IMG/VR virus record: IMGVR_UViG_3300028048_001497
Coordinates: 32,001-96,000 of that record
Length of the DNA stretch: 64,000 nt
Strand: one strand, 5' to 3'
Source: a virus
Lineage: Duplodnaviria; Caudoviricetes
In this document: piece by piece, positions 14,013-46,170 of the stretch
How the letters are laid out: each line of letters opens with the position of its first letter
Numbering within the stretch: position 1 is the stretch's first letter
Notes under the pieces: model-generated
What the model was told of the DNA's origin: nothing
The model's input: only the letters and a program-made list of their open reading frames with translations
Database searches by the model: none
Made by a program: the position numbers and the translations under genes

Positions 14013-15884
14013 TTGTTGAAAGATGCGATTTATAAAATGAAAATTACAAATGCAATTAAAAAAAATAAATCAAAAGAAGCAGATGAATTAAGAAAATATG
14101 CGAAAAGAGAAATTTCAAAAACATTAATTGAAAAAAATGGAATATATGCAAGGGATGAATCTTATTTTAATAATCCGTTATATCATCAAACAAAATGTGT
14201 AGAATGTAATAAAACGTTTTTATATAAACACAAAAATGGAAAAGAACCTCCGAAATTTTGTTCAACAAATTGTAGACATAAACATAATCGAAAGAAAGTA
14301 ATAAAAAAATGTATCATTTGTGGGAAAGAATATATAACAAATAATTGTGATGAAAAGTATGCTCAATTCTGTTCTGACGAATGTTATCAGGAAGGATTAA
14401 AACAGGCTAGAATTAATGAAATACCCATTCTAACGTGCGTTAATTGTGGAAAAGAATATCCTTTATATACAAATACAAGTGGATTTTATGATTCATATCA
14501 ATGTGAATGTGAAATGGACGTAAAGCGCAATCAAAAAATTCATATTTGCCACTATTGTGGAAAAGAATATTTAACAAGTTCTAAAAAATCAAAATTTTGT
14601 TCTTTTCAATGTTCATCAAAACAAACGCGAAAAGATGTTGTGTGGAAAAATTTAAGTGAACATAAAAAAGAATACGAACAAATTACAAAAAGAAAATTAC
14701 CATTAAATAATGAAGATAATTTTGAATGGATAGAAAGAAATGGTATATATGGAAAATCGGAAGAAGATTTTGATTATTTAAGCTATAATCCAAATGCTTT
14801 AAAAACTTGTAAACAATGCGGAAGAAAATATATATCATCGAATAATGAAGATGGATATTGTAGTAGAAAATGTTTCTATGAATCTAAAAAGTCTCATACG
14901 ATTAAAAAATGTTTAAATTGTAATAAAGAATATTCTATATCTGTTACAGATGAACCATATTCACAATTTTGTTCTGATGAATGTGAACAAAATTATTATG
15001 AACATATAAAAGAAAAATGCAAAGTCTATGATAGATTGCATAAATGTACGTGTATAAATTGTGGAAAAGTATTTTATGATATAACAAATACTAGTGTAGA
15101 ATTTTGTTCTTATCAATGTTCTGTTGATTTTAATCATAAACAAAAATTAATAACTAAAAAATGTAAACAATGTGGTAAAGAATTTCAAACATATAATGAT
15201 AGTGATTTTTGTTCTACTAGTTGTTCGTCAAAATATAATATGAAACATGGAAAACGACCACCAAAACAACATTGTCCTTGGAATAAAGGCTTAACTGCGA
15301 AAAATTGTAAAATTATTAAACATAATGCAAAAAAGAAATCTATTACTATGAAAAAAGGTATTGCTTCAGGAAAAATAAAAATGTACTTTAAAGGGAAACA
15401 TTTAACAGAAGAACATAAAAAGCATTGCGCTATTGCTCAATCTAAAGCAATTCGAGAAGGAAGGAAACCTGCTTCACCACAATATATTCATGGATTTTTT
15501 AAAGGTATAGGACATTATGTTCGTAGTGGATGGGAATATAATTTTGCTAAAATATTAATTTATCTACATCGTGATTATGAATATGAATCAAAAACATTTT
15601 TAATAGATGGTGGCAAACAAACATATACACCAGATTTTTATGATAAGGATAGAGATTTGTATTATGAAATAAAAGGTTGGTTTCCAAAAGAAGAACGAGA
15701 AAAATTTAAAAAATTTCGAGAGCAATATCCAAATATAAAGATACATTTATTGCAAGTCAAAAAATTCAAAAATATATATTTATCTTTTAAGGATAAAATA
15801 AAAATGTTAGGCTTGTTTGGTGTAAAAAAATCAAAAGTTGGAATATTAATAACAAAAGATTTAATTAAAATAAAAAGAGATTAA
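14013..15884 (+). CDS. putative homing endonuclease with 8 Zn-finger modules, NUMOD3 and PD-(D/E)xK domain
   Basis: Repeats CxxC(G/N)Kx(Y/F)...FCSxxC; C-terminal RSGWE..YTPDFY..YEIKGW. Confidence 0.75.
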   Translation: MLKDAIYKMKITNAIKKNKSKEADELRKYAKREISKTLIEKNGIYARDESYFNNPLYHQTKCVECNKTFLYKHKNGKEPPKFCSTNCRHKHNRKKVIKKCIICGKEYITNNCDEKYAQFCSDECYQEGLKQARINEIPILTCVNCGKEYPLYTNTSGFYDSYQCECEMDVKRNQKIHICHYCGKEYLTSSKKSKFCSFQCSSKQTRKDVVWKNLSEHKKEYEQITKRKLPLNNEDNFEWIERNGIYGKSEEDFDYLSYNPNALKTCKQCGRKYISSNNEDGYCSRKCFYESKKSHTIKKCLNCNKEYSISVTDEPYSQFCSDECEQNYYEHIKEKCKVYDRLHKCTCINCGKVFYDITNTSVEFCSYQCSVDFNHKQKLITKKCKQCGKEFQTYNDSDFCSTSCSSKYNMKHGKRPPKQHCPWNKGLTAKNCKIIKHNAKKKSITMKKGIASGKIKMYFKGKHLTEEHKKHCAIAQSKAIREGRKPASPQYIHGFFKGIGHYVRSGWEYNFAKILIYLHRDYEYESKTFLIDGGKQTYTPDFYDKDRDLYYEIKGWFPKEEREKFKKFREQYPNIKIHLLQVKKFKNIYLSFKDKIKMLGLFGVKKSKVGILITKDLIKIKRD

Positions 15885-17442: not shown

Positions 17443-18363
17443 ATGGAATTTCATTCATTAAGTGAGATAAAGAAAATATATGAAGAAGAAGATAACTTAG
17501 GTGCACTTGATGATTTATTATATAGTGCAGTAGATGCCATAGTTACGAATTCAAAATATGCAAAGTTTTTTTATGAAGAATATCCATTTGAAGATGGTAG
17601 AGAAGCGATTAATCGGTGTAATTATGATGATTTAAAAGAATGTACCATAGATACTTATGCTCAATATGTAGCATATTCAAAAGATGATGAGATAATAAAA
17701 GAATATGAATATTCTATTTATGGTTCAACGAATGTAGAAGATTTAGTAGAATTTTCACCATATTGTTTATATGAATTAATTAAATCTGTAGATAAAGACT
17801 TCAATAATGATTTTGAAAAAAAAACCTATTCTGATTATTTTGAACGAAGATTATTTAGAAATAAATATAAAACGATACAAAATGATAGTGATGAAAATAT
17901 AGATAGTGCAAAAGAATTAGATAAAATAAAAGATAATATAGGGGATAAACATAATATCAATTTTGATTATGATTATGAAGATAGAGATTATGCATTTATC
18001 TATTTAGATGGTAAAATTATAGAAGGTAAAAGTGGGTAGACACACGCACAGGTATTGGAAGATTATATGAAAAAAATAAATAGAGAAGAAGATATACCTG
18101 AAGATTATAAAGATGGTGGAGATATAGAAGGAAGTAGACCTTCTAATGACCGCATTAATAGATTATTAGGAACGGAAAACAATGCTTATGGAAATGTGAT
18201 AGATAATATGGCATTAATAGAAGTATTAGAAAATGTATCCGAACAAGAAATAGCGGATGCGTGTAAAAAGCAGTTAAAAGTAGATAAAGTATATATGGTA
18301 AATAGAAATACGAATACAGATGTAGTAAAAAGATTAGCAAAGATAATAAGGATGGATGTATAA
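17443..18363 (+). CDS. acidic protein family copy 1, with in-frame TAG at 18037-18039
   Basis: ORFs 17443..18039 and 18055..18363 are one frame. EGKSG*THAQVLE aligns to EGKEGQTHAQILE in the paralogue; joined length 306 aa vs 317 and 310 aa. Confidence 0.75.
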
Positions 18364-19316
18364 TGAATATAGAATTTCAATCACTACAACAAATAGAAGA
18401 TTTTTTTAAAGAAAATAATAACAATTATTTTAATTCATTTAAATATACAGTAGACTTTTTATTTGATGAAGATAATTTTGAAAAATTTTTTGAAGATGAA
18501 TATATGATAGACATATATGATGAACAAAATGAAGATATATGGGAAGATTTACAAAATGCAGATATATCAGAATTTGTTGATTGGCTAGTAAATACGAGTA
18601 AATATAGTGATGGAAAACTTTCGGATGAATATGCTTATGTATTAGAAGAAGAAATACCTGATAATGAATATTCTTTTACATATGAATGTTTAGAAGAATT
18701 GATTGATAGTTTTGCGCATGAAAATTCGTATGTAGCAGATTTTAATAAAGCGAAAAAATCATATATGGATTTTTTTGAACGCAATGCACTTCATGATGAA
18801 TATAATATGGTAGATGATTATGATGAAGATAAAAAATCCATTAATAGTGCAGAAGAATTAGATGAAATAAATGATAGTGTTGGAGATACGCATAAAATAG
18901 ATTTTAAGTATGATTATAAAGACAGAGATTATGCGTTTATTTATGTAGATGGTGAATTAATTGAAGGAAAAGAAGGACAAACACACGCACAAATATTGGA
19001 AAACTATTTAATAGATAATGATAGGGAAGATGAAATTCCTGAAGATTATAAAACAGATGATGGAGATATAGGTGGTAGTAGACCTAGTAAAAAGCGTGTA
19101 GAAAGATTAGTAGGGAAAGAAGATGCTGATGTAGCTTTTGGTCATGTAATAGATAATGTAGCATTAGTAGAAATTGTAAATGGCGTTTCAGAAGATACAG
19201 TAGCAAAAACGTGTATGAAAGAATTAAATATAGATAAAGTATATTTTGTAAATCATCAGAATGAAGTAGTCAAGAGATTAGCAAAAGTTGTTTTATATAC
19301 AAAGGAGAATGTTTAA
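18363..19316 (+). CDS. acidic protein family copy 2
   Basis: D/E-rich; conserved RDYAFIY.DG..THAQ..GSRPS..FGH.IDN.A..VKRLAK. Confidence 0.8.
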   Translation: MNIEFQSLQQIEDFFKENNNNYFNSFKYTVDFLFDEDNFEKFFEDEYMIDIYDEQNEDIWEDLQNADISEFVDWLVNTSKYSDGKLSDEYAYVLEEEIPDNEYSFTYECLEELIDSFAHENSYVADFNKAKKSYMDFFERNALHDEYNMVDDYDEDKKSINSAEELDEINDSVGDTHKIDFKYDYKDRDYAFIYVDGELIEGKEGQTHAQILENYLIDNDREDEIPEDYKTDDGDIGGSRPSKKRVERLVGKEDADVAFGHVIDNVALVEIVNGVSEDTVAKTCMKELNIDKVYFVNHQNEVVKRLAKVVLYTKENV

Positions 19317-20249
19317 ATGGCAAAGATTGTTTTTAATACAATGAGCGAAGCGAAAGATTATTTAGATTCAGATTTTAATGAATTTTTAAATTCACCTTAT
19401 TGCATTACAGAAGGAGGTATTCGTGATGAATTAGAAGAAAATTATCCAACATGTAGAGGTGACGATATAATGAACGAAATCGCTTATGAAGGATTAAGTA
19501 ATTTAGATGTCAATGATTATATTGATGATATTACAAATAATGACTTGTTATTAGATGAATACAAAAATTGGCTATCTGATTATAATACAGAAGATGAATT
19601 AGATGTTTCTAGCGACTGCGTTTCTGAAATGGCAGAGGAACTAACAAGCAAAACGGATATTGAAGAAAATTTTGATAAAGCATTGAATAGTTATGTATCT
19701 TATTGTGAGCGTAATTATTCAGGTTTTGGTGAAGAAGATGACGATATAACCCTAGATTTAGAGTATAATGAAGAAGATAATTCTGTTGATGATTGGTCAG
19801 ATTTGGCAAAAGTAGATGATAAAATAGGGGAACAAACAAACGTTGAATTTGGAACAAGGTTAGATTATGATACTCGCGATGGTGCGTTTGTATATATAGA
19901 TGGTGATGTAGCCTATGGCGAAGAAGGAAAAACACATGGGCAGATTTTAGCGGATTACATGGAAGAACATGGAAATGAAGATATGATACCAGAGGATTTA
20001 AAAGGTGATGATATAGCAGGAAGTAGACCATCGCAGTCACGTATGAGACGTTTGGTAGATACAGATAATGTAGCGTTTGGGCATATTGTAGATAATATGG
20101 CGTTTGTTGAAGTTTTGGCAACAGGAGCAAATGAAGATGATGTAGCCAAGGCTTGTAAGAAACAATTAAAAGTAGATAAGGTTTATTTCTTAGATAATTA
20201 CAATGATGCAGTTAAACGTTTGGCTAAATGGAAAGTTTATACGAAATAA
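19317..20249 (+). CDS. acidic protein family copy 3
   Basis: Same C-terminal domain (RDGAFVYIDG..THGQ..GSRPS..VKRLAK). Confidence 0.8.
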   Translation: MAKIVFNTMSEAKDYLDSDFNEFLNSPYCITEGGIRDELEENYPTCRGDDIMNEIAYEGLSNLDVNDYIDDITNNDLLLDEYKNWLSDYNTEDELDVSSDCVSEMAEELTSKTDIEENFDKALNSYVSYCERNYSGFGEEDDDITLDLEYNEEDNSVDDWSDLAKVDDKIGEQTNVEFGTRLDYDTRDGAFVYIDGDVAYGEEGKTHGQILADYMEEHGNEDMIPEDLKGDDIAGSRPSQSRMRRLVDTDNVAFGHIVDNMAFVEVLATGANEDDVAKACKKQLKVDKVYFLDNYNDAVKRLAKWKVYTK

Positions 20250-20532: not shown

Positions 20533-21732
20533 GTGTATGAAAGGAAAGATTTAATGAAACGTTTAGGAACTGATAAAATGACAGTTGTATATTCACAAGA
20601 GCCTTTTCCAAAAGATGAAATGAAATCTATATTTTTAGCTGGGCCAGTACCTAGAAAAGAATATGAATTATCATGGAAAAATGAAGCATTAAAAATTTTG
20701 GATTCAATGGGATATAATGGTGTTGTATATATTCCTGAAAATAGAAATCCTGAACAAAAAGAAGGAAGCTTTGATTTGCAAGCGCAATTGGATTGGGAAT
20801 ATACTTGTATGTGTGCTTGCGATGCTATTGTATTTTGGATTCCTAGAGAAATGCGTTCGGATTTTGAAATGATTGGATTAACAACAAATGTAGAATTTGG
20901 TCGTTTTCTTAATTCAAATAAACTGTTTTGTGGTTGCCCTGATGAAGCACCAAGAATGGAATATTTGAAATTAATTTCAAGAGATAAGTATGAGTGGCAT
21001 AATACACTTGAAGATACTTTGAAATCTGTGGTACAATATTTAGGTAGAGGAATATATCGAGAAGATGAAGAAATAAAAATTCCTTTGCATATATACAAAT
21101 CAAAACAATTTCAGAATTGGTATAAACAACAATTAAATGTAGGAAATTATTTAACTGGTTTTAATATGGAATATGAATTTGTTATGCCAAAAGCAAAACA
21201 AATGTTTTTAGAGATTTTTCATCCATCGGTTTATATAGCAAAAGAAGATAGAGTAAAAGATAATGAATTTGTAGTGGCAAGAACAGATATGAGTTATATT
21301 CTTGCCTATTATAAAAAAGATGATATAATGGATTCAGAAGTTGTTTTATGCGAAGAATTTCGTAGCCCAATAAATAATAATGAAGAAATGGTTTTTGAAT
21401 TGCCTGGTGGTAGTTCTCTTAATCCAAACGATGATGTTCTTTCGACTGCTTCTAAAGAATTAGAAGAAGAAACAGGGTTAAAATTAGATAAAAATCGTTT
21501 TAAACAGGTAGCATTGAAACAAAGCGCTGCTACATTGTGTTCTCATAAGATAGCTTTGTTTAAGGTAGAATTAACAGAAGAAGAAATCAATTCGCTTAAA
21601 AAAGATAATAGTATTCATGGCGTAATCGAAGATACAGAACAAATTCATTTACATGTAATGAAGGTATCTGAAGCATTGAATATGGTAGATTGGACAAATA
21701 CAGGTATGATATTAAATGGAATAAAGGAATGA
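20533..21732 (+). CDS. nucleoside 2-deoxyribosyltransferase-like domain fused to NUDIX hydrolase
   Basis: IFLAGP..DWE..DAIVFWIPR..GLTTNVEFG; NUDIX box ELPGG...ASKELEEETGL. Confidence 0.85.
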   Translation: MYERKDLMKRLGTDKMTVVYSQEPFPKDEMKSIFLAGPVPRKEYELSWKNEALKILDSMGYNGVVYIPENRNPEQKEGSFDLQAQLDWEYTCMCACDAIVFWIPREMRSDFEMIGLTTNVEFGRFLNSNKLFCGCPDEAPRMEYLKLISRDKYEWHNTLEDTLKSVVQYLGRGIYREDEEIKIPLHIYKSKQFQNWYKQQLNVGNYLTGFNMEYEFVMPKAKQMFLEIFHPSVYIAKEDRVKDNEFVVARTDMSYILAYYKKDDIMDSEVVLCEEFRSPINNNEEMVFELPGGSSLNPNDDVLSTASKELEEETGLKLDKNRFKQVALKQSAATLCSHKIALFKVELTEEEINSLKKDNSIHGVIEDTEQIHLHVMKVSEALNMVDWTNTGMILNGIKE

Positions 21733-21736
21733 AATT

Positions 21737-22846
21737 ATGTTAAAACATTTAAATTTTCATATTAATCAGATTTATTTAATGATGGGGTATCAATGTAATT
21801 TAAAATGTAAATATTGTATTGAACACGATGTAGTAAATCATGCGATGCCAAAGGAAATTAATCCGCAGATTATTGATTGGATGATAGATATTGCTCAAAA
21901 TATAGGTGGTTTTAATGTATTATTTTGGGGTGGTGAACCACTTGTATATTTTGATACTATGAAAAAAGTAGTTGAAATGATAAAAGAAAAAGACAAAGAT
22001 GGTTTGATTACTTTTTCTATGGTAACGAATGGCAAATTGATTAATGATAAAACAATTCCGTGGATAAAAGAAAATTTAAAAGGATTTGGTTTGTCATGGG
22101 ATGGAAGAAATTCTGAAATCACACGTGGATATGATGTAATGAAATCCAATAAAGAAAATATATTTAAATTAGATGATTGGGGTTTTGATGGAGTTTTTTC
22201 TTCCTATACTTATCCGAAAGATTATTTGGATGATTGTTGGGAAATAGAAAAAGAATATGGAAAACCGATTAATATTCATGTGGAAAATTTAATGCAGTAT
22301 GATACACTACCAAATCCTAAGTTAAAAGAGTTTGATGAAGGTAAGTTCTTTCAACAAATGAGAGATATGTGTGATGAGTACGCATATTGTTTTAGGAATC
22401 ATGCTACAATTAGTAATCCAAAATATGCTGAATGGATAAAAACAGAAATATCTTATGTTAGTGTGGATAACAAAAAACCAATGCGTTTGTTCTGCGGTAA
22501 TGGTGGAGAAAATGTAAATTTGGATTTACAAGGTAATTTGTATTGTTGTCACGGTGATACAGAATCAATGGGGACAATTAATGATAATTACTTTGATGTA
22601 TTAAAAAACATTAATGACCATGATAAGACAGTTCAACATGGTATAGATGGATGTAATGAATGTCCTGTACAACCATTGTGTAAAAATGCTTGCCCAAAGA
22701 TGCCACAAAGTTCACGTGATGAATTTTATTGTAGAATGGCTACATTGAGATATTATCCAATTATGGAATTAATGAATGAAATAAATGAGATTAAAAACGC
22801 AGAAATGCAAAAAGACTTTGAATTTATGAAAAACGCAAATATTTAA
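21737..22846 (+). CDS. radical SAM/SPASM enzyme (cassette 1, A)
   Basis: CNLKCKYC, WGGEP, TNG; SPASM CGNG..YCCH..CNECPVQPLCKNACP..YC. Confidence 0.92.
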   Translation: MLKHLNFHINQIYLMMGYQCNLKCKYCIEHDVVNHAMPKEINPQIIDWMIDIAQNIGGFNVLFWGGEPLVYFDTMKKVVEMIKEKDKDGLITFSMVTNGKLINDKTIPWIKENLKGFGLSWDGRNSEITRGYDVMKSNKENIFKLDDWGFDGVFSSYTYPKDYLDDCWEIEKEYGKPINIHVENLMQYDTLPNPKLKEFDEGKFFQQMRDMCDEYAYCFRNHATISNPKYAEWIKTEISYVSVDNKKPMRLFCGNGGENVNLDLQGNLYCCHGDTESMGTINDNYFDVLKNINDHDKTVQHGIDGCNECPVQPLCKNACPKMPQSSRDEFYCRMATLRYYPIMELMNEINEIKNAEMQKDFEFMKNANI

Positions 22847-22860
22847 AGGGGATAAATAAT

Positions 22861-23439
22861 ATGCTAAAAAAGGTTGCAGAAGAATTGAAACAGATTGATA
22901 CAGTAGAGCAATTAAAAAAAGTTTTATCTGATAATGATTGGACTACGGATGAATTAATGGATTATATTGATGACACATGGAAAGCTGATAGTGCGCTTAA
23001 AGATTGGTTTATGACTTTTAAAGGTTTGGACGATTTTTGTGATGAAGCGACAGTTAAAGGTTATATCAATTTTTTGCTCTCTGATAGTGAAAATTATGGA
23101 TATGTAAAAGATGCCATCGAACAGGTTGGATTACCACAAGTTCTTACAACAGGTGATGATATTAATGTATCTGATGAAGTGGCTAAATATTTGATTGGTT
23201 GTATTGATAATGGTAAGTGTTATGATTATCTATCAGATGATATAGATTTTTATGTAGAAAAAACATCAAAAATTATGGATGATATGTATCAGTATGTTAG
23301 TGAATATGATGCGCAAATAGATGATGGTTCTACAAAATATACAAATGAAGAATGGGATAATAAAGTAAATGAAGATTATCAAGATACAATTTGTTCAAGT
23401 GATACAATGATGGGAGTCGCAAAAGAATTGTTTGGTTAA
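22861..23439 (+). CDS. acidic hypothetical protein
   Basis: D/E-rich ORF starting MLKKVA; own RBS and a downstream terminator. Confidence 0.7.
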   Translation: MLKKVAEELKQIDTVEQLKKVLSDNDWTTDELMDYIDDTWKADSALKDWFMTFKGLDDFCDEATVKGYINFLLSDSENYGYVKDAIEQVGLPQVLTTGDDINVSDEVAKYLIGCIDNGKCYDYLSDDIDFYVEKTSKIMDDMYQYVSEYDAQIDDGSTKYTNEEWDNKVNEDYQDTICSSDTMMGVAKELFG

Positions 23440-23446
23440 TATAGAG

Positions 23447-23478
23447 AAAAAGAGAAGTTGAAAGTGCTTCTCTTTTTT
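23447..23478 (+). terminator. intrinsic terminator
   Basis: aaaagagaag...cttctctttt plus T run. Confidence 0.65.
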
Positions 23479-23518
23479 GATATAATATGAATATATAGCA
23501 TTTTGAAAGGATAAAAAT

Positions 23519-24610
23519 ATGCGTAATTATTTAAAAACAGATATATCTACAATTTTTATTATGTTGGGACATGAATGTAATATGAATTGTAAATATTGTT
23601 TGCAACATGATGTTGTAAACGTGGCTTTAGGAAAAGAAATTAATCCTGATATATATAATTTTATTAATGATATTGCAAGAAATCAAAATACAGATTTAGG
23701 ATTACAATTTTATGGTGGCGAACCATTAGTGTTTTTTGAAAAGATAAAAAAATTTATTGATGGTTTAAAATCACGTAATATGTCTAACAACGTATACTTT
23801 ACTATGATTACAAATGGAAAATTGTTAAATGAAGAAAAAGTAAAGTATTTAAATGACAATTTTTCTCATGTAACAATTAGTTGGGATGGAAGAAATTCTA
23901 AAATTACACGTGGGTATGATGTTATTAAAGAAAATAAAGAAAATGTTTTCAAATTAAAGAATTTTTCTTTTTCAGGTGTATTATCTTCTTATAATTATAT
24001 AAAGGATTATTTGGAAGATTGTGAAGAAGTAAATCGAGATTATGTAGAGAATTATCATGGTCATACATTGTATTTTAATGTTGATGAACTATTAGATGTT
24101 AATCTGCAAAATCAGGATTTGAAAAATTTCGATTATAGCAAAGTACAAGAACAAATGGTATCATTATGTGAAGAATATCGGTTATATTTTCAAGAGAATG
24201 AACAAATATCTGTAATAAGAAAAAAGTTTATTGAAGAAAAAATTGGATATTTAAGAAATGCTATCAAAACAAAATCATTTGCACCAACTAGAGATAGATG
24301 TGGTAATGGCTGCGAAGTATTAAATATGGATTTACAAGGGAATTTATATAAATGTCATAATACAGATACAAAAGTTGGATGTATTATAGATAATTATTTT
24401 GATATATTAAAAAATGTATTTGCTTTGGATATGGCAGAAAAAAATTCTAGTAAATGTGATGATTGTATTGTACAAATTATGTGTAGAAATGGTTGTCCTT
24501 TGGTTAAAGATAAAGCTAGAGAAGAATACTATTGCAAAATGGCTATGAGTATGAACTATCCGATAATGCAGTTAATTAAAATCTTGGGTGGTGTTGTAGT
24601 AAATGAGTGA
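23519..24610 (+). CDS. radical SAM/SPASM enzyme (cassette 1, B; close paralogue of A)
   Basis: CNMNCKYC, YGGEP; shares SWDGRNS.ITRGYDV with A; CGNG..YKCH..CDDCIVQIMCRNGCP..YC. Confidence 0.92.
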   Translation: MRNYLKTDISTIFIMLGHECNMNCKYCLQHDVVNVALGKEINPDIYNFINDIARNQNTDLGLQFYGGEPLVFFEKIKKFIDGLKSRNMSNNVYFTMITNGKLLNEEKVKYLNDNFSHVTISWDGRNSKITRGYDVIKENKENVFKLKNFSFSGVLSSYNYIKDYLEDCEEVNRDYVENYHGHTLYFNVDELLDVNLQNQDLKNFDYSKVQEQMVSLCEEYRLYFQENEQISVIRKKFIEEKIGYLRNAIKTKSFAPTRDRCGNGCEVLNMDLQGNLYKCHNTDTKVGCIIDNYFDILKNVFALDMAEKNSSKCDDCIVQIMCRNGCPLVKDKAREEYYCKMAMSMNYPIMQLIKILGGVVVNE

Positions 24611-25496
24611 AAAAGATGTAAAGTTTAGATGTGAAATAACAAATAAACCAAATGGCATTATTACTCCAACAAAATTTAGAGATATAAGAACAGAAAAACC
24701 TGAAAATAAAACTATGAAACGCCAAGATTTGCTAGATATAGCAAATGCTTTGGCTAAATTAGAGAATTACAAAACCCATGTTAGTAATTGTAATTGTACT
24801 CCAATTATTGATTGTCAAACGATTAGATGTCAACAGTTGTTTAAAGGTGCATATGACGAAGAAAGATTAAGTCATGACTTATTAAGTTATGCTCGTTGGA
24901 ATGGTGATAATTCTTTTCCTTATCCGAGAGGCCCAGTACAAAAATATTTGCCAAATGGTAAAAAAAATCCAGAACATAGGTTGAATACAGAAAATGGTAA
25001 ATATAATGATTTTGAATATAAAGTAAACATAGAATTGTGTAGGAAAAATGGTGCAAATTGGGTATACCCAGAAAATCCGTTTACAAAAGAAGTAACGTAT
25101 GGTGTAACGGCTTATGTAAAACAATATATTAAAGATAGAGATTATAAATATGATACGACACCAAAACCGTGGAAACCGTGTCAAAAGATAAAGTCAATTA
25201 GTGATATTTTAAGTTGTGAGAAAATATCTTGTGAATTAACAACATGTCAATTGGTTTTATGTCAAAACAGTAATGCTTGTCAAACATGTCAATCGGTTAA
25301 AGCATGTCAAATATGTCAAACATGTGAAGCACAATGCGTATGTCAATCTTGTCAGTTATGTCAAGAACAAGATATGTATAATAACTGTTGCCAAAAAATA
25401 TCTTGTCAATCACAATGCACTTGTCAGTCTTGTCAATCTTGTGAAAATATTTCTTGTCAAGCATATGTAGATGATGGTAAAGACCTTACGAATTAA
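24603..25496 (+). CDS. Cys/Gln-rich repeat protein, candidate radical SAM substrate
   Basis: Overlaps the rSAM stop; NCNC patch; C-terminal block with 22 Cys, mostly followed by Q/E. Confidence 0.75.
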   Translation: MSEKDVKFRCEITNKPNGIITPTKFRDIRTEKPENKTMKRQDLLDIANALAKLENYKTHVSNCNCTPIIDCQTIRCQQLFKGAYDEERLSHDLLSYARWNGDNSFPYPRGPVQKYLPNGKKNPEHRLNTENGKYNDFEYKVNIELCRKNGANWVYPENPFTKEVTYGVTAYVKQYIKDRDYKYDTTPKPWKPCQKIKSISDILSCEKISCELTTCQLVLCQNSNACQTCQSVKACQICQTCEAQCVCQSCQLCQEQDMYNNCCQKISCQSQCTCQSCQSCENISCQAYVDDGKDLTN

Positions 25497-25554: not shown

Positions 25555-25869
25555 ATGGAACAACAAGAACAATCAAAAGTATCAAGATTTTTTCATAATG
25601 TAATGTCTGTTGATGAAACCAGAGTTTCTGTTTTAATGATAGGCTTTATGGTTTCATTAATTTTTGGTGGATATATGTACTTAACTACAGGTGCTTTAAG
25701 TCAAGTTTGGGCAGATATTGTTGAAACATTGATTTTTGCAGTAGCAGGTATTAATGCAGTTAATAGTTTAGTTGGTGGTAATAACAAATTAGGTCAGATG
25801 TTAAGAAGTTCTCAAAATTCTGTTCCGCCAGTTCCACCTGCAATTCCTCCAAGAGAAGAAAAGAAATAA
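25555..25869 (+). CDS. two-TM membrane protein (holin-like)
   Basis: Two hydrophobic segments and a Pro-rich, charged C-terminus; GAGGTG RBS. Confidence 0.5.
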   Translation: MEQQEQSKVSRFFHNVMSVDETRVSVLMIGFMVSLIFGGYMYLTTGALSQVWADIVETLIFAVAGINAVNSLVGGNNKLGQMLRSSQNSVPPVPPAIPPREEKK

Positions 25870-25880
25870 GATTAAATTTG

Positions 25881-25910
25881 AGGGAATTTTAAATAAATTC
25901 CCTTTTTATT
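25881..25910 (+). terminator. intrinsic terminator
   Basis: agggaattt...aaattccct plus T run. Confidence 0.65.
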
Positions 25911-35643: not shown

Positions 35644-36696
35644 ATGAAACATGTTTTACAAATTCATATGACAAATCAATGTAATTTGAAATGTCCATAT
35701 TGTTATATTCATCAGAATGATAAAAAAATAAGTTTGGATGGATTAAAAAAACAAATTGAGCATATACAAGAATTATCTTTGAGAATTGATGAATTTTTTG
35801 ATGGTGAATATGATGTAACATATTTTGGAGGAGAACCGTTAATTGAATATAACAATATTTTGTTGTTTGATAAATATTTAAAAGAAAATTTAAATATTGT
35901 ACATAGTTTTATTCAAACAAATGGCATTTTATTAAATCAAAATATAAAAAATGAATTAGGCAAAAGAAATATTCATGTTGGGATTAGTTGTGATGGTTGT
36001 GATGATAAGAATCATAAATACATAGAACAATTATATAAAAATAAAATTGTTGAAATGAATCCAAAAATGATGGTAAGTAATTATAATGTATCTGATTTGA
36101 TGAAGAATATTGTCTATTTTTATAAATTGGCTATGAATAATCAAATAGATAATTTTTATATAGATGTATCGTTTGTTAAAGATAACATTTGGGATGAAAA
36201 ATCATTAGGTATATTAAAACAACAATTGAATAGTTTGTATGATTTTATTGTTATGAATTATGACAGTTATCATAGATGGATTTATATAGGATTTGTAGAG
36301 AAGATATTGCAAAATATAAAGAATGGAAAAAGAAATTATGTTTGTTTTGCTGGCAGTAGTGGTTTTAGTTTAACTCCTGAAGGTATTATTTATCCTTGTT
36401 CTAGGTTTTATACAAATCATGAATATCCATTGTTTGATAGTAATAAAAATTTATTTTTTGAAGATAATATACAATTTATAAAATCTATGAATACAACAGT
36501 TGATGATAAATGTAATAAATGTGTTTTGAATCAATTTTGTAATCATGGATGTTTATATTCCCAAATTAAAAATGATGGAATTGTAGATGGATATTGCGAA
36601 GTATTAAAAATGTGTTTTCATATGGTAACAGATTTATATAAATATATGAAAAATAAATACAATATAAATATATTAGAAAGGGTGAATGGTAATTGA
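35644..36696 (+). CDS. radical SAM/SPASM enzyme (cassette 2, A)
   Basis: CNLKCPYC, FGGEP, QTNG; CFAG..YPC..CNKCVLNQFCNHGC..YC. Confidence 0.92.
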   Translation: MKHVLQIHMTNQCNLKCPYCYIHQNDKKISLDGLKKQIEHIQELSLRIDEFFDGEYDVTYFGGEPLIEYNNILLFDKYLKENLNIVHSFIQTNGILLNQNIKNELGKRNIHVGISCDGCDDKNHKYIEQLYKNKIVEMNPKMMVSNYNVSDLMKNIVYFYKLAMNNQIDNFYIDVSFVKDNIWDEKSLGILKQQLNSLYDFIVMNYDSYHRWIYIGFVEKILQNIKNGKRNYVCFAGSSGFSLTPEGIIYPCSRFYTNHEYPLFDSNKNLFFEDNIQFIKSMNTTVDDKCNKCVLNQFCNHGCLYSQIKNDGIVDGYCEVLKMCFHMVTDLYKYMKNKYNINILERVNGN

Positions 36697-37757
36697 GAAC
36701 ACCAATGGCGGTTTCTATTAATATGGGAAGTGCTTGTAATTTTCGTTGCAAATATTGTTTTGAAGTAAAAAATGGTGCAGTAGAAAAGAATGAAAGTATT
36801 CCTGAAAAAGTATTTAATCGAATTTTAGATGTTTTACATGAATTGGCAGATATAAATGATTTGCGAATTGAATTTTGGGGTGGAGAACCAACAGTATATT
36901 TTAAAGATATAAAACGAATTATATCAGAATTTTATGATAATGAAAATGTAAATTTCTTTATGTATACAAATGGTTCATTGGTACAATCGTTCAAAGATGA
37001 TTTGCTTGGAATAAAAAGTCATGTTAATGATAGGCTTCAAATACAAGTATCATATGACTATCAAAATATAGAAAACAATCAACGTTTGCAATTAAATCAT
37101 AGCATTGAAGAAACAGATAAAATGGTTCGAGAAGCAATTAAATGGTTGGATAAAAATAATTTTCATTTTGGTACAAAGTCAACATGTACAATGAAAGATT
37201 TGGAAGAACATTTATTTGAACAATATTTGAACTATGAGGATTTAAATAGGGAATTGAAACATAAAATTCCATTTGCTTTAACTCCTGATACATTAAATGT
37301 TGGTGATATTGATTATGATAAAATGAATTGTCAATTTGTAAAACTAATTCGCTATTTTTTAAAGAATAAAGAGTATGGACAAACAGGTTTTTTGTGGTTT
37401 GACCAGCCAAATAGTAATGCGGATTGTTCTGGTGGACATAATTCATTTCAAATAGATACAAATGGTGATGTATCATATTGTCATGGATGTTTGTATGGGA
37501 AAAAAGATTTAGTATATACAAATATTTTTGAAGATAATTTTTTGCATAAAGTAGATTGTAACTATTTAGTTGCAAATAATATGTTTAAAAAGAATGAACA
37601 ATGTTCAAAATGTGAATCGTTGTTTTGCTTTAGATGTAATGCAATAAATAGCAAAGGCAAAAAGGAAAATTGGAACAAGTCAAATAATCCTAAAGTTTGT
37701 AAGTTGTATAATAAAATCTCTGATTACATTAGAGCTTATTTTAAGCTAACTCATTGA
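36693..37757 (+). CDS. radical SAM/SPASM-like enzyme (cassette 2, B)
   Basis: CNFRCKYC, WGGEP, YTNG; CSGG..YCHGC..CSKCESLFCFRCNA..VC. Confidence 0.9.
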   Translation: MRTPMAVSINMGSACNFRCKYCFEVKNGAVEKNESIPEKVFNRILDVLHELADINDLRIEFWGGEPTVYFKDIKRIISEFYDNENVNFFMYTNGSLVQSFKDDLLGIKSHVNDRLQIQVSYDYQNIENNQRLQLNHSIEETDKMVREAIKWLDKNNFHFGTKSTCTMKDLEEHLFEQYLNYEDLNRELKHKIPFALTPDTLNVGDIDYDKMNCQFVKLIRYFLKNKEYGQTGFLWFDQPNSNADCSGGHNSFQIDTNGDVSYCHGCLYGKKDLVYTNIFEDNFLHKVDCNYLVANNMFKKNEQCSKCESLFCFRCNAINSKGKKENWNKSNNPKVCKLYNKISDYIRAYFKLTH

Positions 37758-37829: not shown

Positions 37830-39242
37830 ATGTCTGAAGTACAAACTATGGATAAATACGTAGAAGGATTTTATCAGATTATTAAAGATTCGGACGTAGT
37901 TGGTGGAACATCCAGATTTCCAATTTGTAAACCATATCAAAGTGAAGATGGAGCTATTGGTGATAAAAACCATGTTTTTTCTACAAGTGTATGGAATGAT
38001 TTTGGCGATTCTGAAAAGAATTGGTTATCTGCAAATAACTATCAAAATCGCTCTACGAAATTACGTGAAGATTTTACAGATAATCCAATAACAAATAATG
38101 AATGGAACGCATTACTTGTTAAAATACGTGAAGAATTTATGATACGTAATAATTTCTTGTCAAATTATGGTAGTTTAAAACCACGTATTAATAACATGTA
38201 TATACAGAATGGTCATCAGGGGTATTTTGCAACAGGTGATACAATTAGGCAAGATGATATATCACGTATCTTTGATGATATATTAACATTGTTGAGTATT
38301 GAAGTTCCTTCTGTTGCGCGGTCAGGAAGTTCGGTTAATAACCGTTTACCATTAAATACTTTATCTTCGGATGTTGCAAAAACAATAGATGTAGCACAAT
38401 CAAATGGGTCATATACAAAAGTAAAAGTTGAACCACACAACGTAGATTTTGCACAACTAGCTTATAATTTAAATGCTTATGATATAAACGAAGGTTCTCA
38501 TAAAGGAAATAACTGGTTTACTGGTTCACATATGCGTGAATATGTATATCGTCATTCAGGTATTAGAACGGAAGAAACAAGTTCTGTCGATGGTACAGTA
38601 AATAATGGTATTGTTCCTACACATGAACCAACAGATTTGACAACAAGTACAACATACGGTTATGCTGAAGAACCCCCTAGAAATAATAGTACTAGTTCTC
38701 AATTAATTACACATCGTAGACCATTTGGTAATATTGATTATGTAAAATTGGTAAAAGATGGTTCTTTGAAAAAGCCAATTATTGATGGCGATGGATATGT
38801 TGTTTCTGATGAATATATGGAAATGGTGCATACTCGTTGGGCATTTTTGGGTTCAGTTGCCAATGCAGGAAAAATTAGTCCAATGTATGTAAAACATATT
38901 ATAGGGACAAGAGAAATAGTTGTTAAAGATAAAGACGGAAATGTTATGAAAGATACATATGGCAATCCAATTAAACAAATAGAAACAAAAGATTTTTCTG
39001 CTGATACTAACATAACAGTTCCAGACTTCTGTAAGAATCCATTATCAATTACGCATGGAGAATATACATTAAATATAGCTGCATCTAATGTTGCTACATA
39101 TTTTATGAAAGTTATGAATTTAATTTCATCTAAATGTGTATGTAATTGCAACTTTTGTTCTTGCTTTGGTCATGAAGCTGCGTGTGCTTGCTATGTTGTA
39201 AAAGTAACAGGTTGGTGCTATACATATCAGTATATTCTTTAA
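37830..39242 (+). CDS. fibre-like protein with Cys-rich C-terminus, candidate radical SAM substrate
   Basis: S/T/N/G-rich body; ends KCVCNCNFCSCFGHEAACACYVVKVTGWCY (8 Cys). Confidence 0.7.
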   Translation: MSEVQTMDKYVEGFYQIIKDSDVVGGTSRFPICKPYQSEDGAIGDKNHVFSTSVWNDFGDSEKNWLSANNYQNRSTKLREDFTDNPITNNEWNALLVKIREEFMIRNNFLSNYGSLKPRINNMYIQNGHQGYFATGDTIRQDDISRIFDDILTLLSIEVPSVARSGSSVNNRLPLNTLSSDVAKTIDVAQSNGSYTKVKVEPHNVDFAQLAYNLNAYDINEGSHKGNNWFTGSHMREYVYRHSGIRTEETSSVDGTVNNGIVPTHEPTDLTTSTTYGYAEEPPRNNSTSSQLITHRRPFGNIDYVKLVKDGSLKKPIIDGDGYVVSDEYMEMVHTRWAFLGSVANAGKISPMYVKHIIGTREIVVKDKDGNVMKDTYGNPIKQIETKDFSADTNITVPDFCKNPLSITHGEYTLNIAASNVATYFMKVMNLISSKCVCNCNFCSCFGHEAACACYVVKVTGWCYTYQYIL

Positions 39243-43016: not shown

Positions 43017-44606
43017 ATGAAAATATTAGGAATACAATGTTATCAAGATTATAATGTTACATATTATAATACAGATACAAAAGAAATGAAGTTTTTGGAA
43101 TTAGAAAAATTATTAAAAAAGAAACATTTTTCTTTCCATTCAGATAAAATTGATTATATGTCTGAAATAGATAATATTTATCGTGATAATCTTAGAAATA
43201 ATTTATATAAATGTCAAAAATTAATTCATAAAGAATTTAATGTTGATAAATTTGACGTGATTTGTTGGAATTATAAAACATTTAAAGACGGTTATTTAAA
43301 ACAGGAATCATATGATTTTGTAAAAATGTTAGAGCGTTGTGACATTTTAAAATTTCATCATCAAGAAAATCATGTGTTACCAGCAATAATTGAAAATCAT
43401 TTATCTGATGCGCTTTGTTTATCTATAGATGGTAAGGGTGATGGAAATCATGCTTTTTATCATTGGAAAGATAATAAATTGAATAAATTGTTTCAAGAAC
43501 AAAAATTCTCATATGGTATGTATTATGAAGTGTTGTCCTGCTATTTTTTAGATAAACGTCATAAATATGAACAAGGATTAGAAGGTAAATTTATGGCATA
43601 TGCAGGTTTATCTAATAATTTTGTTCAAATTAAAGATATAGATGTTTTTGAAAAAACAATTAAAGACGTGAATTGGAATATATGGGAAGATAAAGAAAAT
43701 ATAGAAACATATATTTATAATTTCTTAGATGAACAATCTAAAGAATTTGATAAGTATGATTTGGCATATACCATGCAAAAATTGTGGATAGATTGGGTAA
43801 TGAGAGAACTATCTTCTTATAGACATGAAAGTGATATATTAGTCCTTTCTGGTGGTTGTGCTATGAATTGTATGTTAAATTATGTGATTGAAAAAACAGG
43901 TTGGTTTAATCATATATACTATACCCCTGTTGTAGCAGACACAGGTCAATCATATGGTGCAGTTTTAAATTATTTGTTGCATTATAAACCAGATGAATTA
44001 AATTATATTAAGTCTAAAAACTATACTGTTACTCAATCAATGCAAGAAAAAGATTTGTATCAACAACATAGTTCTGAATTTAACGATATAGATATAAACG
44101 CTTTGGTTGAAAAATTGGCTAATGATAAAATTGTTGGTGTTTGTCGTGGGAATATTGAAATGGGTGCAAGAGCCTTGGGTAGACGTAGCATTTTATCTTC
44201 TCCATTTCACAAAGAAATGCATGATAAATTAAATACAATAAAGGGTAGAGAATGGTATCGTCCATATGGAATTATAATTCCTGAAGATAAAATAAGTGAA
44301 TATTTCGATATAGATACTGATGTCCCATACATGAATATTTTAGCAAAACCAAAAATAGATAATTTATTAGGTGCTATGCATAAAGATGGAACAATTCGTA
44401 TACAAACAGTTAGTGAAAAAGATGATAAATGGTTATATAATTTGTTATATGCGTTTGGTAATAAAACAGGAGTTGCAATTTTAATTAATACTTCATTTAA
44501 TGATAGTGGTTTGCCAATTTTTAATTATTTTAGTGATATGTATCGTATGTATCAAGAAAAATTGGATGGATTAATTATTGAAAATAAAGTTTCGTATAAA
44601 GAGTGA
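43017..44606 (+). CDS. O-carbamoyltransferase (CmcH/NodU/TobZ family)
   Basis: HHQENH, DGKGD, LSGGCAMN, DTGQSYG, EMGARALGRRS, KGREWYRP, HKDGTIRIQ, NTSFN. Confidence 0.92.
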   Translation: MKILGIQCYQDYNVTYYNTDTKEMKFLELEKLLKKKHFSFHSDKIDYMSEIDNIYRDNLRNNLYKCQKLIHKEFNVDKFDVICWNYKTFKDGYLKQESYDFVKMLERCDILKFHHQENHVLPAIIENHLSDALCLSIDGKGDGNHAFYHWKDNKLNKLFQEQKFSYGMYYEVLSCYFLDKRHKYEQGLEGKFMAYAGLSNNFVQIKDIDVFEKTIKDVNWNIWEDKENIETYIYNFLDEQSKEFDKYDLAYTMQKLWIDWVMRELSSYRHESDILVLSGGCAMNCMLNYVIEKTGWFNHIYYTPVVADTGQSYGAVLNYLLHYKPDELNYIKSKNYTVTQSMQEKDLYQQHSSEFNDIDINALVEKLANDKIVGVCRGNIEMGARALGRRSILSSPFHKEMHDKLNTIKGREWYRPYGIIIPEDKISEYFDIDTDVPYMNILAKPKIDNLLGAMHKDGTIRIQTVSEKDDKWLYNLLYAFGNKTGVAILINTSFNDSGLPIFNYFSDMYRMYQEKLDGLIIENKVSYKE

Positions 44607-45367
44607 TAGAATTGAAACATATTCCTTTGATAGAATATCATTTAGTAAATCATTGTAATTTAAATTGTAAGGGGTGTGCTCATTTTGCACCATTGGCAAA
44701 ACATTGGTTTGCAGATATATATGAATTTGAGAAAGATTTAAAACAACTATCTTCATTGGTTGAAATTGATAGACTAACTTTGTTTGGTGGAGAACCATTG
44801 TTAAATGATAATATAAATGATTTTTTAATTATAGCAAGAAAGGTTCTTCCAAATACAGATATTAGTGTTTTGACAAACGGTGTTGTTTTATTAAAAAAAA
44901 TAAGTTCTATGGCAAAAGTTCTAAAAGATAATAATATTTATATTGATATTACTTGTTATCCAATTAATGTTGACTATGAAATAGAATTAAAAATGTTAAA
45001 AGCATTAAAGATACCATATAGAATTTATAATGATTTAGAACGTGTAAAAACATTAAGGCATCATATTTTATCTCATATAAAAAAAGAAAATACATGGGAT
45101 TGTTTAATGATAAATTCAAATTCGGTTCAATTAAGAAATGGTAAATTGTATATATGTCCTTTGCAAGCGTATATTGATATTTTTAATGATTATTTTCACG
45201 AAAATTTTAAAGTAGATAAAAATAATATTTTGGATATTTATAATTGTACGGACGATGATATAGTAAATATGTATCATAGAAAAAATAGTTTTTGTGAATA
45301 TTGTAGAGAACCAATAGAAGGGAATAAATATTCTACATCTAAAAGGGAGAAGTTAGAATGGATGTAA
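44603..45367 (+). CDS. radical SAM enzyme (short, glycan-locus type)
   Basis: CNLNCKGCAHFAP, FGGEP, LTNG; short C-terminal Cys motif (C..YICP..FCEYC). Confidence 0.88.
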   Translation: MIELKHIPLIEYHLVNHCNLNCKGCAHFAPLAKHWFADIYEFEKDLKQLSSLVEIDRLTLFGGEPLLNDNINDFLIIARKVLPNTDISVLTNGVVLLKKISSMAKVLKDNNIYIDITCYPINVDYEIELKMLKALKIPYRIYNDLERVKTLRHHILSHIKKENTWDCLMINSNSVQLRNGKLYICPLQAYIDIFNDYFHENFKVDKNNILDIYNCTDDDIVNMYHRKNSFCEYCREPIEGNKYSTSKREKLEWM

Positions 45368-46170
45368 AATATTGTTTAAAAACACAAATTGTGGATGAAT
45401 GTAATTTAAATTGTAAAGGGTGTGACCATTTTGCTCCATTAGCAAAACCTTGGCATCAACCATTAGTAGATTTTGTTAATATGATGAAAACGGTTCGTAA
45501 TACAATTGGAAATAATATCAAGGAAATTGAATTATACGGTGGAGAACCTTTATTACATGAACAATTATATGAAATGATTTTAGTTTTGAAAGTTCTTTTC
45601 AACAATGAAATTATAATTTCAATTGAAACAAATGGCATTTTATTAAATAATTTTTTACAAAGTCATAAAAATTTAATTAATGATAATAAAATAGAAATTA
45701 AAATTACGGAATATAAAAGCACAAAAGGAATTGTAAATAGATTAAAGAATAATTATTTACATAATAATATATATCAAGCAAAAATGTTAAATAAAGAACT
45801 TGAATTAACAAATCATTTTTCATATAAAGAAAACTTGTTTAATGTTAACATTAACAAAAAACAAAATGAACAAATTATTGATGTATATAATAATTGTTAT
45901 GTAAAATGTGAGGAAAAAGATTCTTTGTGTTTAAGAGATTGGATTTTATCTCCATGTCCAATGACAATGTGCTTGAATATTTTTGATGATTTTTTTAATG
46001 AACAATATGATAATAAGAATAATCATGTTGTTGTTACTGATAAATTATCTGTTAAAGATTTAGATAAAATGGCACATTATCCATGTGATTTTTGTAAGCG
46101 ATGTGGAAATATTATTTATGGTATTCCATATGGCATTTCTAAAAAGGATAGAAAAGAATGGCAGATGTAA
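45358..46170 (+). CDS. radical SAM enzyme, paralogue of previous
   Basis: CNLNCKGCDHFAP, YGGEP, ETNG, PCP..FCKRC. Confidence 0.88.
   Translation: MDVKYCLKTQIVDECNLNCKGCDHFAPLAKPWHQPLVDFVNMMKTVRNTIGNNIKEIELYGGEPLLHEQLYEMILVLKVLFNNEIIISIETNGILLNNFLQSHKNLINDNKIEIKITEYKSTKGIVNRLKNNYLHNNIYQAKMLNKELELTNHFSYKENLFNVNINKKQNEQIIDVYNNCYVKCEEKDSLCLRDWILSPCPMTMCLNIFDDFFNEQYDNKNNHVVVTDKLSVKDLDKMAHYPCDFCKRCGNIIYGIPYGISKKDRKEWQM

Follow-up and report, generated by a model that had tools for sequence, protein, structure and literature searches.

A radical SAM/SPASM gene coupled to a Cys-repeat protein gene in a megaphage: a candidate module for radical maturation of a phage protein

QhpD is a radical S-adenosylmethionine (SAM) enzyme with a SPASM domain that forms Cys-to-Asp/Glu thioethers within a protein subunit, QhpC (the gamma-subunit of quinohemoprotein amine dehydrogenase), and not in a secreted peptide. 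CteB, which acts on CteA (the SCIFF system; PDB 5WGG/5WHY), and PapB, which acts on PapA (freyrasin), introduce multiple Cys-to-side-chain thioethers into Cys-repeat cores, and the CXXX-repeat system (TIGR04115, TIGR04119, TIGR04114/TIGR04117) pairs a radical SAM (rSAM)/SPASM maturase with Cys-repeat targets. In Methanococcus voltae, the seven-Cys SPASM rSAM enzyme CrpC puts ranthionine links into the 29-kDa Cys-rich protein CrpA (PMC13692751, 2026); C-X-X-Q/D motifs are noted for this pair, and QhpD/QhpC is cited as its precedent, in the same paper. Here we describe a related gene module in 64,000 nucleotides (nt) of DNA from a virus of the Caudoviricetes (positions 32,001 to 96,000 of record IMGVR_UViG_3300028048_001497). 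This whole stretch is called the window, and coordinates without a locus prefix refer to it. The module comprises two rSAM/SPASM enzymes, rSAM A and rSAM B, and a Cys-rich protein of 297 amino acids (aa). On balance, we interpret it as a phage-encoded protein-maturation system in which a SPASM rSAM enzyme that has no RiPP recognition element (RRE; RiPP, a peptide made by the ribosome and modified after translation) puts thioether cross-links into a phage, and probably virion, protein.

CrpC/CrpA and QhpD/QhpC are the closest precedents, and neither comes from a phage. The module resembles CrpC/CrpA in that a protein-sized, repeat-built Cys-rich substrate would be encoded beside a SPASM rSAM enzyme, and the phage protein shares with CrpA a conserved N-terminal region, a C-terminal Cys tract and potential acceptors after the Cys residues. 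It differs in that CrpC has an RRE whereas the phage enzymes have none, in that the CrpA repeats are 17 residues long as against the C-Q-x triplets of the phage tract, and in that CrpC/CrpA is an archaeal, cellular system with a suspected metal-related role and is not phage-borne. QhpC receives few links from a periplasmic enzyme, without a repeat ladder or phage context; the QhpD family (TIGR03906) is among the top matches of our enzymes, with 72 bits for A and 67 for B, far under its cut-off of 453. The substrates of CteB and PapB are short leader-dependent peptides bound via an RRE, whereas the phage enzymes lack the corresponding N-terminal domain of ~95 residues, and neither of the two residues that would mainly serve as acceptors in the phage tract, Gln and Asn, is an established acceptor of PapB. 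From the CXXX-repeat system the phage tract differs by a spacing of mainly 3 with conserved Gln, in place of CXXX. The module would thus function like CrpC/CrpA, QhpD/QhpC and ranthipeptide maturation, yet its sequences place it outside each of these families. Full-text literature searches found no paper on rSAM/SPASM maturation of phage proteins; one cyanophage paper mentions an rSAM maturase in passing only, and the CrpC paper (PMC13692751) makes no mention of phages.

The window belongs to a 174.5-kb viral record to which CheckV assigns a completeness of 35%, suggesting a megaphage of roughly 500 kb. rSAM A (369 aa) lies at 21737..22846 and rSAM B (363 aa) at 23519..24610, both, like all features given below, on the plus strand. 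The gene of the Cys-rich protein (24603..25496), the proposed substrate, overlaps that of rSAM B by 8 nt. The enzymes share 43% identity over 356 residues (E=2e-105), in agreement with the initial annotation, made from the sequence alone, of two SPASM paralogues of which the second overlaps a 297-aa open reading frame (ORF). The two are not a contiguous pair, since between them lie an ORF for an acidic 192-aa protein (22861..23439), a hairpin and a site resembling a promoter. In a quick maximum-likelihood tree, A and B fall within one megaphage clade (SH-aLRT 98), inside which rSAM A forms its own clade on a long stem, and the lone rSAM of loci L001, L005 and L177 is orthologous to rSAM B. One rSAM is present in the lineages with a short form of the Cys-rich protein, as in L001 (an rSAM of 367 aa with the 197-aa protein P0004), and rSAM A and the acidic protein occur only in the lineage with the 290-297-aa form. 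The acidic protein has homologues only in L010-L012, is thus restricted to lineages having rSAM A, and matches no family in Pfam, NCBIfam or PHROGs. As judged from these comparisons, rSAM B is the conserved partner and rSAM A a divergent, lineage-specific duplicate limited to the lineage of the 297-aa substrate, and this corrects the initial pairing of both enzymes with the protein. Searches against isolated phages, by tblastn with rSAM B (E<=1e-20) and by blastn with the module region, gave no match.

All four SPASM-pair enzymes of the window (A, B and a second pair, C and D, described below) match the radical SAM domain PF04055 above its threshold of 29.5 bits (A 51.1, B 39.6, C 50.1, D 43.0). 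Both A and B carry CxxxCxxC at residues 20-27 and, invariant over a 19-sequence alignment, the seven-Cys pattern C-x9-15-G-x4-C ... C-x2-C-x5-C-x3-C ... C of SPASM maturases with two auxiliary 4Fe-4S clusters; the invariant positions in rSAM B are C261, G274, C279, C313, C316, C322, C326 and C339. By analogy with CteB and CrpC (PMC13692751), these seven Cys would leave an open iron on auxiliary cluster I. The top NCBIfam match of all four enzymes is PapB (NF047865; A 107.8, B 103.5, C 113.5, D 68.3 bits), in every case far under the 340-bit equivalog cut-off, so none is assigned to that family. For rSAM B, CcpM (77 bits), SCIFF (75) and QhpD follow, all below cut-off, and nif11-type maturases are also among the best sub-cut-off matches of A and B; the CXXX-repeat maturase TIGR04115 is not among the best 25 NCBIfam families of either. 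A and B also fall outside the SCIFF/CteB maturases (TIGR03974; 78.8 and 74.9 bits against 425, with the RRE domain absent), the CrpC family (TIGR04463; 37.7 and 33.5 against 525) and the anaerobic sulfatase-maturing enzymes (anSME; TIGR03942; 58.1 and 49.7 against 349).

The nearest solved structure to the enzyme-family profile is that of CteB (5WGG/5WHY; E=2.9e-32), with anSME ranking behind it. CteB enters the alignment at its residue 96, past its RRE, and the phage enzymes start ~19 residues ahead of CxxxCxxC, which shows that they have no RRE. These profile comparisons describe RRE-less SPASM enzymes that are ranthipeptide-maturase-like and lie outside every characterised family. The anticipated likeness to rSAM maturases was therefore recovered in kind, the thioether-forming ranthipeptide/SCIFF maturases being nearest, and not in degree, as every score is below its cut-off.

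The low scores to every characterised family bear on a different outcome for the same enzyme-substrate pair, namely another radical chemistry: Calpha sactionine formation, the anSME type of Cys oxidation to formylglycine or dehydro species, cross-links of the C-C or C-O kind, or a change to the Gln residues. Sactisynthases (RumMC 55, StsB 49 bits) and anSME (58 bits; PDB 4K36, E=4e-19) match as well, and the phage enzymes share with anSME the lack of an RRE and would also share with it a protein-sized target. We nevertheless regard such a chemistry as unlikely, since PapB, SCIFF/CteB and QhpD outrank the sactisynthases and anSME for all four window enzymes, the anSME substrate motif C/S-x-P/A-x-R is absent from the 297-aa protein, and a donor-acceptor arrangement is suggested by how strictly Cys and Q/E/D/N are paired. 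Thioether formation, by analogy with the best-matching enzymes, is somewhat more probable than not.

The 297-aa protein contains 28 Cys. The initial annotation had counted 22 of these in the last ~105 residues (from nt 25179), with 19 followed by Q or E, and our recount gave the same figures; the spacings are mostly 3, 5 and 2. The C[Q/E] repeat tract itself spans residues 193-286 (25179..25460), includes all 22 of these Cys and is followed by an acidic DDGKDL end. At the other end of the protein, residues 17-25 form an NG.I..T.F motif and residues 40-57 an amphipathic helix, which together make up a conserved element (24651..24773). The helix is followed, as previously described, by an NCNC..CQ..CQ patch (residues 62-77; 24786..24833), where N62, C63 and C71 do not vary and Q72 hardly does. 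In a set of 28 proteins from megaphages and prophages, N17, A49, L53, N62 and C63 are invariant. In an AlphaFold2 (AF2) model from the 28-sequence alignment (mean pLDDT, or predicted local distance difference test score, 45.9), residues ~12-60 are the only confidently modelled part, with a pLDDT of 72-83 for helix 40-57. Motif and helix together are a candidate built-in, leader-like recognition element. The C[Q/E] tract is left unmodelled by AF2 (pLDDT 25-35), and the ESM Atlas model (pLDDT 0.33) gave no usable look-alikes, which is what would be expected of a RiPP-like core. A complex prediction for rSAM B and the 297-aa protein, both entered as alignments, scored 0.00, with a partner pLDDT below 50, and counts neither for nor against the pairing.

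Sequence searches recovered homologues of two sizes, 290-297 aa at ~60% identity and 181-203 aa without the middle ~100 residues. The insertion of ~100 aa (24834..25178) is found only in the longer forms; P0130 has a different insertion, at another site. All Cys columns and most of the following Q/E are invariant in homologues 38-61% identical, and in these alignments the 297-aa protein is a member of a conserved family with every Cys invariant. The whole 174.5-kb record has eight rSAM-motif ORFs and only two Cys-dense ORFs, each directly after a SPASM rSAM pair; together with the invariance of Cys at this level of identity, this argues that the arrangement is not due to chance. We also considered a DNA-level repeat or binding site as an explanation of the TGTCAA repeats and rejected it, as conservation is at the protein level. 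The protein has no Pfam match at E<=1, no NCBIfam match at E<=0.01 and no PHROG match. It matches no metallothionein, ferredoxin or zinc-ribbon family and no known target family, whether of the CXXX-repeat, SCIFF or another type, which corrects the earlier parallel with CXXX-repeat targets. A scan of viral contigs with the single protein gave no match, and a profile search with the family alignment recovered only 6 proteins, compared with the far richer locus survey centred on the enzyme.

In each of the nine family members whose upstream DNA is readable (the window protein, P0002, P0004, P0006, P0008, P0129, P0130, P0131 and the L020 protein), the Cys-rich gene is immediately preceded or overlapped by an rSAM/SPASM gene or the C-terminal part of one. 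The initial annotation had named homologues without an rSAM neighbour as counter-evidence, and the coupling came through this comparison intact. In the megaphages, the gene order rSAM, Cys-rich protein, ~100-aa two-helix membrane protein, dUTPase_2-like enzyme and DEAD_2 helicase is kept. From this coupling we consider it likely that the rSAM enzyme and the Cys-rich protein are enzyme and substrate.

Our survey covered 157 loci with enzyme relatives, drawn from viral contigs and species-representative genomes, including 49 loci with close relatives (at least 180 bits, about 31-62% identity). Same-strand ORFs no more than 2.5 kb away in which a stretch of 40 residues contains 8 or more Cys were taken as Cys-repeat ORFs. 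They lie beside the enzyme in 41 of the 49 close-relative loci, as against 0 of 275 more distant ORFs in the same loci that are Cys-dense, and the proposed co-occurrence with C[Q/E]-repeat ORFs is thereby borne out. Usually there are two tandem genes encoding proteins of 98-150 aa, which start 0-23 nt past the rSAM stop. These small proteins align with the window protein over the NG.I..T.F motif, the helix, N-V-D-N-C-G-N-C, the CQ repeats and an acidic DD(S/G) end. In 58 distinct tracts, which are 29% Cys and 19% Gln with a dominant Cys spacing of 3 (C-x-x-C), 75% of the Cys are followed by Q, E, D or N (Q alone 58%), while 37% are preceded by one of them.

This composition is also what a metal-binding protein might show. 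The Cys-rich protein could be an uncrosslinked metal or Fe-S binder, either metallothionein-like or a metal-coordinating trimeric fibre needle, with the rSAM enzyme having another target or relying on the protein as its partner for clusters or electrons. Metal ions are often bound at the tips of phage fibres and spikes, a Cys content of ~29% with dominant C-x-x-C spacing is typical of metal sites, and the structure predictors that failed to fold the tract were run without ligands. We judge this to be quite improbable: the metallothionein, ferredoxin and zinc-ribbon families gave no match, the conserved Gln beside nearly every Cys has no obvious metal role, and metal binding leaves unexplained why all 9 of the 9 family members adjoin an enzyme of the SPASM maturase type and why 48 of the 49 enzyme loci show the pairing. 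CrpA, which is similar in look, is covalently modified (PMC13692751).

In 7 of the 8 close-relative loci lacking a separate Cys-repeat ORF, a larger protein of 195-463 aa, ending just before the rSAM gene, carries the Cys tract as its C-terminal tail. Each of these fused tails has a helix and, behind it, NCNCDCDC..GDDS or another C-[D/N] tract related to it. The 463-aa protein of locus L113 matches many PHROG tail-fibre families and ends in the helix and then NCNCDCDCDCDCGDDS, and the genes upstream of the rSAM in L016 and L044 also match PHROG tail-fibre families. Judged by homology to these three fibres, a tail-fibre homologue ends just before the rSAM in ~39 of the 49 loci. In prophages, the enzyme family and the Cys-repeat genes are located in tail modules, without the nucleotide-metabolism neighbours of the megaphages. 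Because the enzyme follows tail-fibre genes in temperate relatives, where the Cys tract is either free or fused to a fibre, the product is most likely a hardened, fibre-associated virion component of phages of strict anaerobes; this setting, together with the fusions, favours a virion-associated product over a secreted peptide. The hosts named in the records are all gut or rumen anaerobes, mostly Negativicutes (Acidaminococcus, Megasphaera, Phascolarctobacterium, Succiniclasticum, Dialister and Selenomonadaceae), and further hosts are Ruminococcus and termite-gut Elusimicrobiota. This restriction to anaerobes suggests that thioethers serve where disulfides are unavailable.

The small, tandem genes also resemble those of a RiPP cluster. 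The Cys-repeat proteins might be precursors of a phage RiPP, such as a bacteriocin or a signal freed at lysis, with the N-terminal ~60 residues as leader, the Cys tract as core and the 297-aa form as an enlarged precursor. A leader-like helix before a Cys-rich core and tandem precursors of 98-134 aa after a maturase are typical of RiPP clusters, and the location, with tail genes on one side and lysis genes on the other, is one often occupied by morons. This is a decidedly unlikely reading, however, given that no locus examined has a protease or an exporter, that the tract is fused to 195-463-aa proteins including a PHROG tail fibre, that insertions of 50-100 aa are tolerated between the supposed leader and core, and that the free proteins, at 98-297 aa, exceed the typical size of RiPP precursors. 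With substrates of 98-470 aa and neither a protease nor a transporter at the loci examined, these loci are not RiPP clusters in the strict sense.

For the megaphage itself, a virion location of the cross-linked product is possible and somewhat doubtful; the window's own proteins gave no PHROG tail-fibre match. The suggestion in the initial annotation that the phage armours a virion protein fits the temperate relatives, in which the module comes right behind tail-fibre genes or fibre-like proteins carry the tract as a fusion, and fits less well the megaphage, where the module lies among nucleotide-metabolism genes. The flanking megaphage genes encode a deoxyribosyltransferase-like/NUDIX fusion, a dUTPase_2/MazG-like enzyme and a DEAD_2 helicase, neighbours that would suit rSAM enzymes acting on nucleotides or DNA, with the Cys-rich ORF being unrelated to them. 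We consider this highly improbable, as the prophage enzymes and Cys-repeat genes lie in tail modules without these neighbours, and the enzymes, whose SPASM domain is complete, resemble peptide maturases.

In the maturation mechanism that we propose, rSAM B, and perhaps also its duplicate rSAM A, would modify a dedicated substrate with which it is probably co-transcribed and translationally coupled. The substrate would bring its own docking element, formed by the NG..T.F motif, the amphipathic helix and the N-C-N-C patch, instead of an RRE-bound leader. Its core would be the tract, long and intrinsically unstructured, with a Gln or Glu behind each Cys (in relatives also Asn or Asp). Reductive cleavage of SAM would generate a 5'-deoxyadenosyl radical, which would take a hydrogen from the methylene beside the side-chain carbonyl of Q/E/N/D, and a Cys thiolate bound at auxiliary cluster I would then trap the resulting carbon radical. 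Some 20 repeats of this reaction would produce a ladder of redox-insensitive thioether (ranthionine-type) staples. The residue types found after Cys (Q/E/D/N) are exactly those with a carbonyl-adjacent methylene. In PapB, where auxiliary cluster I binds the Cys, the hydrogen is taken from the methylene that adjoins the carboxylate of Asp/Glu (PMC12373016).

Several points weigh against cross-linking of a virion protein by this module. The known PapB acceptors are carboxylates, and test peptides with Gln or Asn at the C-terminal acceptor position were left unprocessed (PMC12373016). The scores of A-D are far under all curated cut-offs, and the chemistry is thus not transferable by homology. CxxC-rich tracts are classic metal ligands. 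Among the megaphage loci, two that carry the enzyme, L014 and L045, show no Cys-rich gene beside it, the module is embedded among nucleotide-metabolism and helicase genes and not in a tail module, and synteny kept among related phages is partly inherited and does not count as independent evidence. Comparison of the fibre-fused tails with the helix/NCNC element of the free proteins gave an hhalign probability of 4%, which does not establish homology. The proposal is drawn from sequence and genomic context. A broader extension, in which phages of strict gut anaerobes, from ~500-kb megaphages to ordinary prophages of Acidaminococcus, Megasphaera, Dialister and Phascolarctobacterium, build ~10-20 Cys-to-Gln/Asn/Glu/Asp thioether staples in fibre tips or fibre-associated proteins in place of disulfides, is less likely than not; it would bring carboxamide residues into the range of ranthionine acceptors.

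If the proposal is correct, RiPP-type radical chemistry would extend beyond secreted peptides to the hardening of virus particles, a new class of post-translational maturation of virions. It would also imply a large enzyme family that recognizes protein substrates without an RRE, and probably Gln and Asn as new acceptors for enzymatic thioether formation, which would be of interest to peptide and protein engineers. The stabilization of extracellular phage host-recognition proteins in reducing, protease-rich guts would be explained. Related prophages reside in cultivable strains (Acidaminococcus fermentans, A. massiliensis and Megasphaera sueciensis), so that the question is directly testable.

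With respect to transcription, a hairpin followed by a TG-extended, sigma-70-like promoter site, TTGAAA-17-TATAAT (23444..23486), precedes rSAM B; the hairpin was read from the sequence, and the promoter scan found 11 of 12 consensus matches, which is a consensus match only. This suggests a putative start of the core unit. Downstream of the Cys-rich gene, a 104-aa protein with two predicted hydrophobic helices (25555..25869) has homologues in 16 loci by tblastn, its gene having the same position in all megaphage loci, and is followed by a terminator-like hairpin and T-run (25880..25904) identified by consensus scan only. Together, these features suggest a transcription unit of rSAM B, the Cys-rich protein and the two-helix protein, bounded by the promoter-like site and the terminator-like hairpin, with rSAM A probably in a separate unit. 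In L014, which has no Cys-rich gene, the two-helix protein of ~100 aa directly follows the rSAM.

Immediately upstream of rSAM A, at 20533..21732, a 399-aa protein appears to be a fusion of a nucleoside 2-deoxyribosyltransferase-like domain (Pfam PF15891, E=1.2e-10) and NUDIX, the NUDIX match being weak. It is also found upstream in L005, L010 and L014 and is probably outside the maturation system. Further upstream lie tandem acidic paralogues of 317 and 310 aa with similar C-terminal halves and no family match (18363-20249), and a 623-aa protein built of many C-x-x-C...C-S..C zinc-ribbon-like repeat units, a pattern unrelated to that of the CQ tract (14013-15884). The GC content of the window is ~23-37% per 2-kb bin, mostly 25-30%.

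The second rSAM pair of the window precedes a Cys-tailed protein as well. rSAM C (350 aa, 35644..36696) and rSAM D (354 aa, 36693..37757) match phrog_1802, the same PHROG as A and B, with E=1.5e-27 and E=4.8e-32, respectively. rSAM C scores 38.7 bits against the SPASM family TIGR04085 (cut-off 27) and lies below the cut-offs of the CXXX-repeat system for the maturase TIGR04115 (63.8 bits; 350) and for TIGR04119 (35.5 bits; 150). Directly after them, a 470-aa protein (37830..39242) has a helix at residues 419-434 (nt 39084-39131), taken from an AF2 model with a mean pLDDT of 47.3, and a Cys tail at residues 436-463 (nt 39135-39218). The tail, CVCNCN.CSC.GHEA.C.CYVVKV.GWCY, is invariant in homologues 36-59% identical, and shows a weak profile match to the fibre-fused tails (probability 65%, E=6e-5).

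Two small rSAMs with the motif CNLNCKGC.HFAP (254 and 270 aa; 44603-45367 and 45358-46170) adjoin carbamoyltransferase and glycosyltransferase genes. In the 500-kb phage L014, a homologue with 35% identity (L014:5241-6008) is located directly upstream of the SPASM rSAM. The rSAM gene before P0006 is in frame only for its last ~35 codons, the preceding ~275 nt to the contig end being AT-rich and non-coding (L009:1-378); this may reflect an intron, an insertion or an assembly break. In some relatives, IS605/TnpB (Cas12f1-like) elements have inserted into the megaphage block, which is collinear apart from them (L005:18144-19439 and L007:10699-11767).

Downstream of the prophage Cys-repeat genes, a conserved cassette is present at L016:7780-10596, L109:6079-8911 and ~27-40 other prophage loci. 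Its products are a protein of 121-129 aa that weakly matches Hint_2, one of ~280 aa, another rSAM of smaller size (~315 aa) and one of ~230 aa, followed by holin and lysin; no such cassette is present in the window. At L122:3333-4058 and L169:3023-4156 (Sutterella, Rhodospirillales), an NCNCDCDC/CNCACAC tract is followed, within one protein, by a segment resembling a Hint/intein N-terminus, CF.(S/R)G..., which hints at autoprocessing right behind the tract. Finally, distant rSAM/SPASM relatives (23-27% identity) in L071, L081, L085, L089, L091, L095, L096, L149 and L150, carried by phages and prophages of Proteobacteria and freshwater bacteria, adjoin NCNCNCAC-type tracts, and one neighbour is a fibre-like 319-aa protein ending in NFNCNCNCACDCCC. 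The pairing of rSAM enzymes with Cys tracts thus reaches well beyond the CQ family.

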